A stretch of DNA of 64,000 bases, from the IMG/VR virus record IMGVR_UViG_3300033076_001048, positions 9,766 to 73,765 of that record; one strand, given 5' to 3'. The notes beneath the pieces were generated by a model. It did no database searches and had not been told where the DNA came from. It saw only the letters and a list, made by a program, of their open reading frames with translations. Origin of the DNA: a virus (Duplodnaviria; Caudoviricetes). The translations under genes were made by a program, and so were the position numbers. The first letter of the stretch is position 1; each line of letters begins with the position of its first letter. Of the stretch, positions 16,028-23,092 are shown in pieces.

Positions 16028-17171
16028 ATGCGTGATTTAATTAAAAAAATATTAAAAGAAGAAGTTGGGGTACCTCGTGGGATTACAGATTCTGCACAAA
16101 AGTTATATAATGATATTATAACAAGATTAAAAAGAAAAACAGTAACAGGTAATTCTAACTTTAGTTTATCGTTTAAAAATACAAATAAAAAATATTCTTT
16201 TTCTGATTATCAAGATTTTGAAAACATAATAGTTGAATTTGAGTTTGATGGGTATGATGAGAGTGAAACTCATAAAGGAATTTTAGTCTTGGGATTGGGT
16301 CATAACGGTCAATCTCAATTAGATAATGGTTTTAAATTGAATAATGTTGACACTGACGAAATAAAACTTTCAATTAATTTAGCAATTCCAACCTCAATTA
16401 GTGAGGTTGATAATAAAATTATTATCCAAACTCTACAAGATAATAAAAGTCTAATTATGTCATCATTAGCACATGAATTGAAACATGCGTATGATAGTTA
16501 CAAAAAACCTTCTGAAACTGTAAAACAAAGGTCGTTATATGGTGCATATTCAGGTACTCGTTTTGGTATTGAAGAACTTTATCACAGCAATTGAAAACTT
16601 GGTTAGACCTTCTGAAATTTATAGCTTGATGCAACAGGGTGAAATATCTCAAAAAGATTTTTTAAATTTTATTTCAAGTAACAGAACGTATTCAACACTT
16701 AAAGACATAAATGAATTTAGTCTTGAAAATATGATTAAATCATTAAAACAAAAACCTGAAGAAATTGATAAATTTTTATCAAACGTTGAGGATTATGAAA
16801 TTCCAGAGTCAATGGATGTGAAAATAAATGATTTATTAAAAATAGTTTATTTTGAATTACAGAAAAGAACATTACAGAGAGCACACTCAATGTTAACAAA
16901 CAATTTCTTTGAGGCTATGTTTGGTTTGTCAGATGAAAAAATGAAATTTTTAAATTCTTTTGAGAGCGAAATTCTAAAATTTAAAAAAAATCCATTGAAA
17001 TATTTTGAATTTCAAGAGAAAAAGTTTAAATTTGTAAGCGAAAAAATGATGAGACGATTATCAAAATTATATTCTTTGGCTAAGCCAAACCCTATTAAAT
17101 TGGTTCATAAAGACCCAGTAACATATGAAATGAAAATGTTAGAGTCTAAACCAAGAAATATAAAATCTTAA
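16028..17171 (+). pseudogene. leader-motif HExxH protein broken by a frame shift near 16575
   Basis: ORF 16028-16594 (AHELKH) continues in another frame (FITAIENLVRPSE) to 17171. Confidence 0.55.
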
Positions 17172-17862: not shown

Positions 17863-18552
17863 TTAATCTTCATTTTTACAGAGAACATCGTATTCACTCA
17901 TTAAAGTATCACCATATCTTTCTAACATTATTTCATGTAATTCATCAATATATTCTTCAGTTGTTGGTTCAATAATGCTTCGTGATACAGCTCTTGATAT
18001 TGTATAGTCAATTATTGCTTCGGCAAAATCTAAATCATCTTCAAAAAAATCACAACTATCTTTATAATCTTCAATAACATCAAATAGTAGGTCAGACAAA
18101 CCATCAGGTAGTGTAGACTCATATAATACTGATTCATTCATATATTCACCTGACATATAAATATCAAAATCAACATCGGTATCAAAATATTTTTTTACTT
18201 GTTCCCAAATTTTCATTTTAAACTCATCCCATATATAATCAGGGATGTCATCATATCCATACATTCTCTCCCATGTATCTTGGTCTTTAAAACCAACCAA
18301 CAATCTATCAACAATAATATAAATGGTACCCTCATATTTTGTAGAACCCCAATTAATATCCCAAATAGAAGATTTTTTTACATGATATTCTATGGATACA
18401 TCTAATGGTATTTCATCAAAAGTGTTATAATATTCTGTGTTGTATTCACCAAAATTATTATTAATGAAATCGGTAATTAGTTCACCAATTTCAGTATCAC
18501 GTTCTTCTTTAAGTATTTTTTTGAATTGTGATTCAGTAATAATTAATTTCAT
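17863..18552 (-). CDS. acidic leader-motif protein
   Basis: MKLIITESQFKKILKEE start. Confidence 0.75.
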   Translation of the reverse strand: MKLIITESQFKKILKEERDTEIGELITDFINNNFGEYNTEYYNTFDEIPLDVSIEYHVKKSSIWDINWGSTKYEGTIYIIVDRLLVGFKDQDTWERMYGYDDIPDYIWDEFKMKIWEQVKKYFDTDVDFDIYMSGEYMNESVLYESTLPDGLSDLLFDVIEDYKDSCDFFEDDLDFAEAIIDYTISRAVSRSIIEPTTEEYIDELHEIMLERYGDTLMSEYDVLCKNED

Positions 18553-19115: not shown

Positions 19116-19175
19116 AACAATACAAATATACTGAAATTATTTGAATTCACAAAAAAAACTTATTATCTTTATAAT

Positions 19176-21323
19176 ATGGATTCTACTTATGAAATTGTAA
19201 AAGAACTTATTGACTTTAATTCTGAGGGAGTTGATACGTATAACCACAATGGAAGTACGTGGTTAATTTTTACTGACCAAAAAAAATGGGTCATAGAATT
19301 AACAAAAGAAAAAACTCTTTGGTATAACTATTATTTTTTTACAGGTGTTTTTAAATACCTATCGTTGGATGTTGTTGAAAATCAACATTACATTACTAAA
19401 TGGGTTGAAGATACAATAATCAATCCCGTGAAACACACCTCTCATTTTCATTGGAATAATGATAGTTCTGTTGAAGACACAATTGAAAATGGGGTGAAAG
19501 ACATCCAAGAAGGGATTGGAATTCAAGACCTTACAGTTGAAGACACCTTTGAATATTATGGGAGAAAGTGGAATAAAGTTAATGATACCATTCAAAATGG
19601 GGTGAAAGACATTCGACAGGGTATTCCACTTCTCGGATTTCAAGTTGAAGACACCATTCAAAATGGGGTTAAACAAACGAAACGTAGTTATGAGGGTTCA
19701 AGAAAACAGAGAACAGAAGACACCATAGAAAATGGGGTTAGACACACCATAGACACCTCATATCATAGAAACAATTTGGTTGAAGACACCATACAAAATG
19801 GGGTGAAACACACCCGGTCAATCCAATATCAATGCCTTCGAGCAGTTGAAGACACCATACAAAATGGGGTGAAACACACCGAAAAATCTCTACAAATTGA
19901 TGGTTCTTGTGTAATTGAAGACACCATACAAAATGGAGTAAAAAAAACCAAAAAGGGTGTTTTAGTACAAGAACTTAGTTTTGAAGGTGTTATTGAAAAT
20001 GGGGTGAAAGAAACCAAATCATACGTCAATAATGATTTTGATATGAACGACGCCATAGAAAATGGTGTTAAACACACACAAGGTAGTATTTTTGATAACC
20101 CAACGGCAGTTAAAGAGACCATTCAAAATGGGGTGAAACATACTGATTGTTTTGGGGAATATGAAGATTATGAGATTGATACCATTATTCAAGATGGAAT
20201 AAAAAACACCGGAGAAATATTATGGAGACATACACAAACGATTGAAGACACCATAGAAAATGGAATAAAAGAAACTCACCGTTTTGGTTTAGGGAATGAA
20301 GATGAAATAGAAGACACCATTCAAAATGGGGTGAAACACACACAAGGTAGTATTTTTGATAACCCAACGACAGTTAAAGACACCATACAAAATGGTGTAA
20401 AAGAAACTTCATTTTGGTCAGGTGTTCAACCTCTTGTTGAAGATGTAATACAAAATAGAGTTAAAAAAACTTATTCTGATAAGATTCCTCATGAATATGA
20501 TTGGACTAACCAATTTACAGAAGAGATTGATATTATCATTGAAAATGGTGTTAAAGAAACCAAACTTGGAGCACCTGATAATAGAGATTATTTTATTGAA
20601 GATGCAATTCAAAATGGTGTGAAAGAAACAACACCTGGTGGATATTTGGGGTTTGTTGAAAAGAAGGGTAAGAAAATCCATCAATTTGAAACCGCAAAAC
20701 AACTTTATTATGTTGAAGATGTTATTGAAAGTGGTATTAAAAAAACTGAGGCGGCAGCTTTGTTTGACGAAGAATCAAAAATGGATACTGTCATCAGTGA
20801 GGGTATTAAAGAAACACATGATGATGTTATGCCACATACAGGTAGGGTTGAAGGTGTAATTAAAAATGGTGTAAAGGAAACCGTAGACGCTTTATCATCA
20901 AGATTACCAAACCCTGTTGGAGATGTAATTAAAAATGGTGTTAAACAATGTATACCATCACATACTCCCCTATACAACCCAATGGATTTTTCTGTTGAAT
21001 ATCTTGAAAACCATAGATTAGATGATGTTACAAGTGTTTTAGAAAAAGGTATTAAAGAAGTTCAACCGTTACCAGCACAGGATGGTAATAGGGATTGGGG
21101 TATTTACTATCACAGACAAGAAGTCCCAACCAAACCTCATACTCAATATGTTGATGATGTAATTACTAATGGAATAAAAGAAACAAAACCGATGGATGAG
21201 TGGGTTAATACTGAGAGAATCTTGGATGGTGTTATTGATAAAGGTATTAAGGAAACCAAATCATCAGGAAGTAATTTTCCGAAATGGGCGGATGATGTTA
21301 TTAATAATGGAATTAAATCTTAA
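19176..21323 (+). CDS. repeat protein: ~76-aa N-terminal domain plus 27 VEDTIQNGVK(H/E)T units with variable inserts
   Basis: Single open frame; probable ATG 19176 after TATCTTTA box. Confidence 0.85.
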   Translation: MDSTYEIVKELIDFNSEGVDTYNHNGSTWLIFTDQKKWVIELTKEKTLWYNYYFFTGVFKYLSLDVVENQHYITKWVEDTIINPVKHTSHFHWNNDSSVEDTIENGVKDIQEGIGIQDLTVEDTFEYYGRKWNKVNDTIQNGVKDIRQGIPLLGFQVEDTIQNGVKQTKRSYEGSRKQRTEDTIENGVRHTIDTSYHRNNLVEDTIQNGVKHTRSIQYQCLRAVEDTIQNGVKHTEKSLQIDGSCVIEDTIQNGVKKTKKGVLVQELSFEGVIENGVKETKSYVNNDFDMNDAIENGVKHTQGSIFDNPTAVKETIQNGVKHTDCFGEYEDYEIDTIIQDGIKNTGEILWRHTQTIEDTIENGIKETHRFGLGNEDEIEDTIQNGVKHTQGSIFDNPTTVKDTIQNGVKETSFWSGVQPLVEDVIQNRVKKTYSDKIPHEYDWTNQFTEEIDIIIENGVKETKLGAPDNRDYFIEDAIQNGVKETTPGGYLGFVEKKGKKIHQFETAKQLYYVEDVIESGIKKTEAAALFDEESKMDTVISEGIKETHDDVMPHTGRVEGVIKNGVKETVDALSSRLPNPVGDVIKNGVKQCIPSHTPLYNPMDFSVEYLENHRLDDVTSVLEKGIKEVQPLPAQDGNRDWGIYYHRQEVPTKPHTQYVDDVITNGIKETKPMDEWVNTERILDGVIDKGIKETKSSGSNFPKWADDVINNGIKS
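19404..21320 (+). repeat. CRISPR-like coding array, consensus GTTGAAGACACCATACAAAATGGGGTGAAACACACC, 27-33-nt spacers in the 5' half
   Basis: Repeats start at 19404, 19470, 19536 (truncated), 19578, 19644, 19713, 19779, 19845, 19914, 19980, 20043, 20109, 20175, 20241, 20307, 20373, 20436, then degenerate; 19779 and 19845 copies identical. Confidence 0.9.
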
Positions 21324-21652
21324 TAAGAAGATTTGAGTGTTCCAAGAACATAAAAATTTATTTCATATTCAGAACCATATTCATCAAAGTCAATTGAAAA
21401 GTATTTTTCAACAAATGAACGTATTTGTTTATGCAAATCATTATCACCGATTTGTGAATTGTTGGTATTTCCTTCTAATACATTGTGATAATCGGTAATA
21501 ATATCAATAACCTTTCTTTTTATCACTTTCTTGGTATTGGCTAACATTACCCCTTTCTCTTTAAATGATATTGCGATTACTTGAGGAAAATTATCTTTGA
21601 TTGCTTCTCCGATTAATTGTAGTTCTTGTGATTCAGTGATTAATATTTTCAT
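21320..21652 (-). CDS. leader-motif hypothetical protein
   Basis: MKILITESQ start. Confidence 0.7.
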   Translation of the reverse strand: MKILITESQELQLIGEAIKDNFPQVIAISFKEKGVMLANTKKVIKRKVIDIITDYHNVLEGNTNNSQIGDNDLHKQIRSFVEKYFSIDFDEYGSEYEINFYVLGTLKSSY

Positions 21653-21665
21653 ACTATATTTGTAA

Positions 21666-22274
21666 TTACCACTTTAATAAAAAATCTTTTATGATTATCC
21701 CATAACGGTCTTTAAAGTATTCAGATACTAATGATTCAGATTTTTCTCTACTTCCAATAGAAAAGTATTTTGTTAACTCGTCTACAATATCCTCAGTTAA
21801 AAACATTCTTCCCCAAGAATTTTTTTGTGCAATTATATTTTTATCTAATTCTAAATCATTCTTTCTGTATATACGAATATAACCGTCATCATTAGTAATA
21901 TTTAAACCACCATAGGACATCTCAATGATATCATCCATGATTTCAAACATCTTTTCCTCATTGTCATCCTCAGACTCATTTAACGAATCTTGATTTTGTT
22001 CTTTCCAAAATTGTCTAATTTTATCACCAACCAATTTCTTAAATATTTCCTCATACTCAGCAACATCAGACCAATCAATATCGTAAATTACCTCAGGTAA
22101 TAATATTTCAATTACATAATCAACATAATCATCTTCAGGATATTCTTCGGCTTCTTCACCAATGTCGGTATTGTTTAACATTTCATACAAGACATCAGAT
22201 ATTTCTGATAACCTTCTTCTAACTGAATTAGGTATGATTTGTTCAAACTGAGATTCTGATATGATAATCTTCAT
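21666..22274 (-). CDS. acidic leader-motif protein
   Basis: MKIIISESQ start; internal SLNESE. Confidence 0.75.
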   Translation of the reverse strand: MKIIISESQFEQIIPNSVRRRLSEISDVLYEMLNNTDIGEEAEEYPEDDYVDYVIEILLPEVIYDIDWSDVAEYEEIFKKLVGDKIRQFWKEQNQDSLNESEDDNEEKMFEIMDDIIEMSYGGLNITNDDGYIRIYRKNDLELDKNIIAQKNSWGRMFLTEDIVDELTKYFSIGSREKSESLVSEYFKDRYGIIIKDFLLKW

Positions 22275-23092
22275 TACAAATAAATATTACCTCCAACATT
22301 AACCATTTGTCTTATTTCTTCTTCAGAATATTTTTTGGATATTGGAGTTAAAAATATATCCAAATTACCACCAACTGATTGAAGATTTCCAATAGATTCA
22401 ATTGGAGTATCTTCTAAAAATAAATCACCACCAACTGATTGAAGATTTCCAAGAGATTTAATTGGGGTGTTTATTAAATTCAAATTACCACCAACGTAAG
22501 TTAAGTTTCCAAGAGATTCGATTGGTGTGTTACGTAAACGCAAATTACCACCAACATGAGTTAGGTTTCCAAGGGATTTAATTGATGTTTTTCGTAAATC
22601 CAAATCATCACCAAGTGAGTATAATGGATTTCCTTCAGATTCTAAAAATTTTAGAAAAAGGTCCCAATTATTATTAAAATATTTTAATGACGGAATATGA
22701 AGAACTTCATCTTCTTCACTTTCCATTATTTTTTTATATTGAGATTCGGTAATAATAATTTTTCTTACTGACTCAGTTCTTAATTTTTCACTACAATTTT
22801 TTTTATAATAATTAGAAAGATAATCACCAAATAAATCAACCATGTGATAATAAAAACTATCTCTATCTTTGGCGGACGCATTTAAATCTTCAAGATAATT
22901 GTATGTCATTATATCACAGGCTTCAGCAATAAAAGCACCAACGTTCTTAAATTCACATGGTAGCATTGCATATTCAACAATGTTATCCATTTCTTGTTTC
23001 ATATCATCCATAGACATTCTTCTACGAAGATATGTGGAGATGGTTTCCAATAAAACTGTTTGATGTTGTGATTCAGTAATAATGATTTTCAT
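22274..23092 (-). CDS. leader-motif protein with C-terminal LRR-like repeats
   Basis: Two IIITESQ motifs; repeated TPIESLGNLxxVGGxLxL. Confidence 0.8.
   Translation of the reverse strand: MKIIITESQHQTVLLETISTYLRRRMSMDDMKQEMDNIVEYAMLPCEFKNVGAFIAEACDIMTYNYLEDLNASAKDRDSFYYHMVDLFGDYLSNYYKKNCSEKLRTESVRKIIITESQYKKIMESEEDEVLHIPSLKYFNNNWDLFLKFLESEGNPLYSLGDDLDLRKTSIKSLGNLTHVGGNLRLRNTPIESLGNLTYVGGNLNLINTPIKSLGNLQSVGGDLFLEDTPIESIGNLQSVGGNLDIFLTPISKKYSEEEIRQMVNVGGNIYL

Follow-up and report, generated by a model that had tools for sequence, protein, structure and literature searches.

The gene at positions 19176-21323 of the window (the whole 64,000-nt stretch of phage DNA analysed here) is best explained, at a probability of roughly 0.78, as a CRISPR-type array joined in frame with a small phage domain and still gaining spacers. 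In total, 15 distinct inserts from five phages carrying arrays of this family match at 27-30 of 30 positions, either in genomes that belong to one Bacteroidia family or in related contigs, and these matching sequences indicate that the inserts are almost certainly captured host DNA. The translation of such 30-base host pieces as 10-residue peptides appears to be an undescribed route to protein diversification; a survey of the literature on coding arrays or related mechanisms, with most subscription papers outside its coverage, returned no description of such a gene.

Anatomy of the gene and its family

The reading frame is uninterrupted from 19176 to 21323 and encodes a 76-codon N-terminal domain followed by 26 full 36-nt units, of 12 residues each, and one half unit at about 19536. 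An earlier note on this DNA had counted 27 units of a 12-residue motif, separated in the 5' half by spacers of 27, 30 or 33 nt that lengthen towards the 3' end and never carry an in-frame stop; all of this is borne out, with the half unit completing the count and the 3' inserts reaching 87 nt. Two of its other descriptions stand in part. The inserts, taken to be almost all different, are largely unique in the 5' half (eight have no match among about 240 homologous proteins) but one occurs twice, and the repeats do decay towards the 3' end, with the best at 19779 and 19845, but the repeat sequence that was quoted is exact only in these two copies. The features of the gene are as follows.

19164..19171, plus strand: possible Bacteroidota sigma70 -7 box with one mismatch, just 5' of the start codon
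19176..21323, plus strand: whole gene, 715 aa; N-terminal domain in frame with the translated repeat-insert array
19176..19403, plus strand: conserved N-terminal domain (helix, four strands, two helices); its DNA occupies the place of a CRISPR leader
19404..19439, plus strand: first repeat, degenerate in this gene; completes the last helix of the N-terminal domain
19440..20435, plus strand: variable 5' half with 27-33-nt inserts, unique and shared ones mixed
19536..19577, plus strand: half repeat and short insert, a deletion or recombination scar
19779..19814, plus strand: repeat on the 5' side of the youngest insert, with the same sequence as 19845..19880
19815..19844, plus strand: youngest insert, an exact 30-nt host fragment between the only two identical repeats of this gene
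19845..19880, plus strand: repeat 3' of the youngest insert, the duplicated copy, identical to 19779..19814
20079..20108, plus strand: shared insert, first copy, common to 23 homologues
20343..20372, plus strand: second copy of the same insert (29/30 identical), a unit duplication by recombination
20472..21221, plus strand: old trailer of degenerate repeats and lengthened inserts, each common to 21-98 homologues and in largely the same order

The box just upstream of the start codon is of a type that we take to be that of Bacteroidota sigma70. Of 38 dereplicated homologues, 13 have a perfect -7 box at most 25 nt from the start, against 0.7 in shuffles, and this suggests that host RNA polymerase may transcribe the gene from it. 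The N-terminal domain is predicted with confidence (AF2 pLDDT about 95 over residues 1-80). Its structural matches are weak (Z<5), many of them winged-helix-like, and some uncharacterised phage proteins are related to it in structure; the comparison gave no clear relative. The first repeat is perfect, and identical to the repeats after it, in the young arrays L001, L013 and L063. The junction between domain and first repeat (window 19392-19409) resembles the repeat core out of register, possibly a microhomology through which array and gene fused.

Homologues of the protein number 385 of similar length and 333 shorter ones, and searches of Pfam, PHROG, Rfam and the ESM Atlas gave no family match for the gene; the 'peroxiredoxin' and dodecin labels carried by some homologues are taken as artefacts of the repeat. 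The source contig is a 73.8-kb phage fragment, 27% complete, and the family is widespread in freshwater Bacteroidota phages of ~300 kb. All five near-complete carriers encode bS21 and on this basis belong with the large freshwater phages for which Bacteroidetes hosts are predicted (PMC9723584). From 173 viral loci 98 distinct arrays were parsed, of about 2 to 27 units. Among the 511 periods measured from one well-conserved repeat to the next, every one is divisible by three and 446 are of 66 nt; this regular spacing is not chance. Clustering of the 549 distinct inserts gives 403 groups, of which 336 have a single member. Several loci (L001:5226-6900, L013:1432-4275, L057, L068, L136 and L145) carry tandem paralogues with separate arrays, and the L001 paralogues have one repeat variant and one insert in common. 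The frame rule fails only rarely: in L107 (reverse strand, ~5783), a degenerate three-repeat relic with stops and 65-nt spacing, in insert 4 of L145, an old insert with a stop, and in a 67-nt interval at the 3' end of L009.

Several observations were made on the surroundings of the gene. ORFs 16028-16594 and 16539-17171 (plus strand; 188 and 210 aa) overlap in different frames and have homologues that are single proteins of ~418 aa; a frameshift or an assembly error has probably divided a single gene here. The neighbouring genes 17863-18552, 21320-21652, 21666-22274 and 22274-23092 (minus strand) have in common a short N-terminal motif, repeated at the DNA level too and typical of this phage group, and the last of them contains four to five leucine-rich tandem repeats of 60 nt (20 aa) at 22341-22615. 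By eye, genes resembling DHFR, CCA-adding enzyme, methylglyoxal synthase, RNA ligase and adenylosuccinate synthetase lie within 36328-60073, together with glycosyltransferase and metallophosphoesterase genes. On the 5' side of the window (about -8300 to 940 in its numbering) there is a cluster of genes that apparently bear signal peptides, like Bacteroidota secreted proteins.

Host origin and polar insertion of new units

The youngest insert of the window gene (19815-19844) is found at 30/30 in a Bacteroidia contig (G809:C21, locus L302, E 1.7e-8) and at 27/30 in a second genome (G806), and has no match outside arrays in IMG/VR. Its protospacer lies inside a host gene for an RsmB/F rRNA methyltransferase (PF01189), on the same strand and shifted by one frame. 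One insert of L001 has a P-loop-like antisense reading, and nine metagenome contigs contain it inside an AAA_24 gene, one of them at 30/30. Through a core gene of one of these contigs we arrived at a Bacteroidia order of 191 genomes, possibly NS11-12g, which was then searched with the arrays. Seven of the eight inserts of L063 match a single genome cluster, corresponding to one host genus, on separate contigs and five of them at 30/30; the genes hit encode leucine dehydrogenase, NuoE, AccA, a DUF4139 protein and multicopper oxidase. Insert 1 of L063 gave no match in a first metagenome scan and was found at 30/30 in GTDB genomes. Further protospacers came from L001, L013 and L004. A gene pair of AAA_24 and DUF3871 (L274-L285) is found repeatedly in contigs of freshwater Bacteroidia, where it sits together with restriction genes in islands of differing context. 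Palindromes with a 10-bp stem occur in two young inserts (L009 insert 4 and L063 insert 5), the second of which corresponds to a palindromic element that occurs repeatedly in host contig G822:C202. None of these results depends on genome G412, which is flagged as unpublished.

Among the 14 oriented protospacers, with two assignments uncertain, seven are sense and seven antisense, and only three are in the frame that the phage reads. The ends of the matches coincide with the insert boundaries, and the protospacer flanks are not repeat-like. As a control the inserts were reversed, and in the 1.48 Mb of G809 even the best matches then had at least 6 mismatches. Mis-binned phage arrays are an unlikely source of these matches because the matched host loci lie inside intact housekeeping ORFs. 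The earlier note had asked for each spacer to be compared with host, phage and self genomes, and the comparison gave boundary-exact matches in hosts and none in phage DNA outside arrays: no insert recurs outside the arrays of G000, G002, G005 and G006 or of 1.5 Mb of phage loci, and phage and plasmid collections yielded chance hits only. The array of L013 gave no boundary-exact hit in 301 genomes of the F. columnare order, and those of L015, L019 and L046 gave no host match among 96 genomes. On the leader side, nine of the 15 protospacers have G at -6 and eight have it at -5, a weak, post hoc PAM-like signal (p 4e-5 uncorrected, n=14 with several hosts pooled, the 15th protospacer being without it).

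The growth of the arrays is polar. Identical flanking repeats enclose 12.2% of the unique inserts against 0.6% of the shared ones, most commonly at positions 1-3, which we read as the probable footprint of integration with repeat duplication. Arrays L001, L046, L063 and L064 open with runs of identical, lineage-specific repeat variants, as expected if the first repeat is copied at each integration. From the first to the last fifth of the arrays the proportion of shared inserts rises from 28% to 58%, and repeat identity falls from 30.4/36 to 25.5/36. Young inserts are of random composition, with GC at the three codon positions nearly flat (0.44/0.38/0.36, against 0.41/0.34/0.21 in phage genes), and the inserts have no positional base bias. 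A frame-mixture model gave an in-frame fraction of 0.35 and a bacterial-like source of 0.82 for the youngest inserts, close to the 0.45 and 0.68 of real spacers, and an in-frame fraction of 0.78 for old shared inserts.

Close relatives differ by deletions and by swapped insert order, and the order is often scrambled, so that recombination at the repeats also moves units. The proposal of growth from one end is qualified to that extent, its core being upheld by the 5' enrichment of unique inserts and identical repeats. In the comparison of inserts among homologues, by which the earlier note would have had its idea refuted, the 5' inserts proved largely unique and polarity exists, but old 3' inserts are shared, and insert order is often scrambled. 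Its broader suggestion, that a CRISPR array was domesticated or that an undescribed diversification system adds units of 66 nt close to one end, gains support from the host matches and the polarity.

Selection on the translated product

A stop codon interrupts one of 312 unique 30-mers from the phage arrays, that one in a degenerate relic. In true bacterial arrays an in-frame stop is found in 143 of 352 30-mers (41%), and 14% of the spacers are of 29 or 31 nt. The earlier claim that the protein is under selection is confirmed by dN/dS, which is 0.33 in the repeats and, in shared old inserts, 0.34 in the gene frame against 0.96-1.28 in the other frames. Young repeats use GC-rich Gly and Val codons, which drift to phage usage with age; the Gly codon is GGG in 145 of 179 units at positions 2-4 and in 51 of 180 at the last three positions.

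Structure prediction, likewise suggested beforehand, was confident for the N-terminal domain but folded the array in a single-sequence model and not in the alignment-based one, where it is unfolded with pLDDT <50. A perfect array modelled as a single sequence forms a parallel beta-helix in 3/5 models (pLDDT 76), whose best structural match (Z 14.9, rmsd 2.8, 170 aligned) is to generic beta-helices. As the alignment-based model has no beta-helix, we treat the solenoid as a lead only.

The integrase, alternative readings and known systems

Bacterial relatives of the repeat were sought in GTDB with a pattern made from the phage repeat together with Cas13b repeats, a choice that qualifies the resemblance found. 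This recovered 52 loci with 43 distinct repeats, nearly all in named Bacteroidota and mostly in arrays of 66-nt period, which agree with the phage consensus at 21-30 of 36 ungapped positions; the closest are those of Parapedobacter soli (30/36) and Sphingobacterium (27/36). The genes adjoining the loci that were checked encode either Cas13b (NF038190) or a TnpB/Cas12f-like protein with an ECF sigma factor, and loci of the second kind resemble dCas12f-sigmaE loci (PMC13472631). The arrays with repeats most like that of the phage (26-30/36) are in L248 (10005-13433), L250, L251 and L252, beside TnpB/Cas12f-like genes, and an ECF sigma gene is present in L248 and L250; on repeat similarity, arrays of this type are possible donors of the ancestral phage array. 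Upstream of the phage arrays there is no clear leader conservation at the DNA level; what is found is a conserved protein domain, followed by an array under protein-level selection.

As had been noted for the window, cas genes were not seen: Cas1 and Cas2 were not detected in the 73.8-kb contig, which has no ORF of Cas9 or Cas13 size, and no RT or integrase is evident by eye in the window ORF list. Eight phage genomes at least 90% complete have no Cas1 and five have no Cas4, and HMMs derived from host proteins found neither Cas1 nor Cas2 in four records. No neighbouring gene is conserved, the best family being present in 28 of 87 loci. In the host order Cas1 occurs in 27 of 191 genomes (about 14%), mostly in Cas9-Cas1-Cas2 loci with 30-nt spacers, including the genome group matched by L063; the best-matching host genomes, the incomplete MAGs G809, G822, G848 and G880, have no cas1. 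Type II-C repeats of the host family are mostly 46-47 nt, a ruler mismatch, and one is 36 nt. One II-C locus of this family (L369, in G804:C14) encodes a Cas9 of 1136 aa and has a 36-nt repeat that begins with the same seven bases as that of the phage; it is a candidate adaptation module. Polarity relative to the repeat is the same as in host II-C arrays, and opposite to that of F. columnare VI-B and most VI-B-like arrays sampled. In F. columnare, Cas1-less 36-nt arrays are filled in trans with 30-nt spacers, many of them host-derived (PMC8092290). By this analogy, and because the phages are without cas1, the integrase is quite probably the type II-C Cas1-Cas2 of the host.

Capture of the 30-nt host fragments by an unrecognised phage-encoded or other non-Cas1 integrase, in a self-contained diversity-generating system, strikes us as unlikely. 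It would suit a gene that is widespread although Cas1 is present in so small a part of the host order, the imperfect fit of repeat length and polarity to host II-C arrays, and the high rate implied by eight successive fresh inserts in L063; yet 30 nt is the II-C spacer length of these hosts, and neither a Cas1, Cas2 or Cas4 in the phage genomes searched nor a conserved neighbour speaks for an enzyme of the phage. It is very improbable that the gene encodes an ordinary old tandem-repeat protein whose loops arose by duplication, divergence and cassette shuffling, its likeness to CRISPR being coincidental. Shuffling and sharing of old inserts are real, but this account is opposed by the 15 matches to host genes, which are exact at the insert boundaries and lie in unrelated frames, and by nearest-neighbour identity among inserts, which is bimodal with few intermediates. 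Duplication and divergence as the origin of new inserts is refuted by the host-DNA matches.

Two further readings concern what the array is for, and we hold each to be rather doubtful. In one, the array matters mainly as DNA or RNA, either as a decoy that soaks up Cas1-Cas2 integration or as a source of antisense crRNAs turning host Cas13b, Cas12f or Cas9 on host genes, its frame being open only because the N-terminal domain and the C-terminal part are needed. Phage arrays that target hosts are known (PMC7162821), young repeats keep rare codons, as in the GGG counts above, and a hairpin across distant phages, and the absence of inserts matching phage DNA outside arrays is as expected if self-targeting guides are lethal. 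The host bias, however, is also accounted for by degradation of host DNA, inserts come equally from both strands, old inserts lose their match by synonymous drift with the peptide kept, and old repeats lose the hairpin with the motif kept. In the other reading, acquisition is an accident of a CRISPR-derived repeat and the peptides are neutral filler, selected for solubility and frame alone. The random composition of young inserts, the range of array length and the existence of a few stops and frameshifts would fit tolerated accretion of this kind, but the near-complete purge of 5' stops implies a need for the array that lies downstream of them, distant phages have old inserts in common (in up to 101 of about 240 homologues, with the low dN/dS given above), and an integration-competent repeat is kept in several N-domain subfamilies.

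In the mechanism that we favour, a CRISPR-type array still growing within a coding gene, new units are, as the matches indicate, exact 30-nt fragments of host DNA, from either strand and in any frame, which come to lie between two identical copies of the repeat variant of the lineage, mostly near the 5' end. Host II-C Cas1-Cas2 would write them in trans into the phage DNA during its replication, with the degraded host chromosome as the supply. Since 36 and 30 nt make 22 codons, the frame survives insertion; inserts of the wrong length or with a stop are purged. Those that survive come under purifying selection at the protein level and gradually take on phage codon usage, and recombination at the repeats shuffles them, deletes them and exchanges them between paralogues and between phages. 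The product would be an early cytoplasmic protein. Chances are about even that its constant 12 residues build a beta-solenoid carrying the 10-residue peptides and that these peptides offer a variable binding surface against host factors, and a useful peptide-display function might equally well be present or absent. We lean slightly towards the full proposition that host Cas1-Cas2 writes random 10-codon host pieces into an expressed phage scaffold, where selection would screen and recombination spread de novo peptides, some of which would become conserved modules.

The accepted view of a CRISPR array is that of a non-coding memory with an RNA read-out; in this gene the CRISPR writing process appears to build protein. 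If this is true, phages diversify protein by a route distinct from retroelements and recombination, exploiting the immune-memory machinery of the host. The arrays would document how peptides are born de novo in a natural series that can be dated, starting with host DNA read out of frame and ending with conserved modules, which makes that question testable. The inserts also link uncultured giant lake phages to hosts at genus or species level, and suggest that Cas1-Cas2 could be used for growing in-frame peptide libraries in vivo.

In diversity-generating retroelements (DGRs), adenines in the variable site of a phage protein are substituted from a template repeat via reverse transcriptase. The present gene is like them in that a dedicated mechanism at the nucleic-acid level varies a phage protein at a defined site, but here the protein lengthens by taking in whole foreign fragments, the inserts being exact host pieces free of positional base bias. 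The VI-B (Cas13b) arrays of F. columnare (Hoikkala et al. 2021, PMC8092290) have a 36-nt repeat of the same family (25/36), 30-nt spacers, many of them host-derived, no cas1 of their own and the acquisition-motif side toward the leader; the phage array differs in being coding, with a coding sequence in place of the leader, no adjacent effector, no 29- or 31-nt spacers, no stops and the opposite polarity relative to the repeat. The dCas12f-sigmaE arrays of Bacteroidota (PMC13472631) have the closest repeats, are likewise CRISPR material exapted for a non-immune use and are reported to carry self-targeting spacers, but they provide RNA guides to a Cas12f protein, whereas the phage gene is a selected, translated array. 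The Cas-less arrays that huge phages carry (Al-Shayeb et al. 2020, PMC7162821) likewise have host-chromosome spacers and no acquisition genes; the available part of that paper describes them as RNA-guide arrays and does not describe protein-level selection. In the Campylobacter phage Cas4 system (Hooton and Connerton 2015, PMC4283603) a II-C array similarly takes only host DNA during infection, but there the spacers enter the host array and a phage Cas4 is involved, and five genomes of the present phages have no Cas4. The large freshwater phages of Chen et al. (2022, PMC9723584) resemble the carriers in encoding bS21 and in their predicted Bacteroidetes hosts; the available part of that paper does not mention the gene, whose inserts link directly to one Bacteroidia family. 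The gene is thus neither a DGR nor an ordinary repeat protein: it is CRISPR-like at the writing step, yet, because it has no leader and no cas genes and selection acts on its translated product, it is no member of any CRISPR-Cas system as defined.
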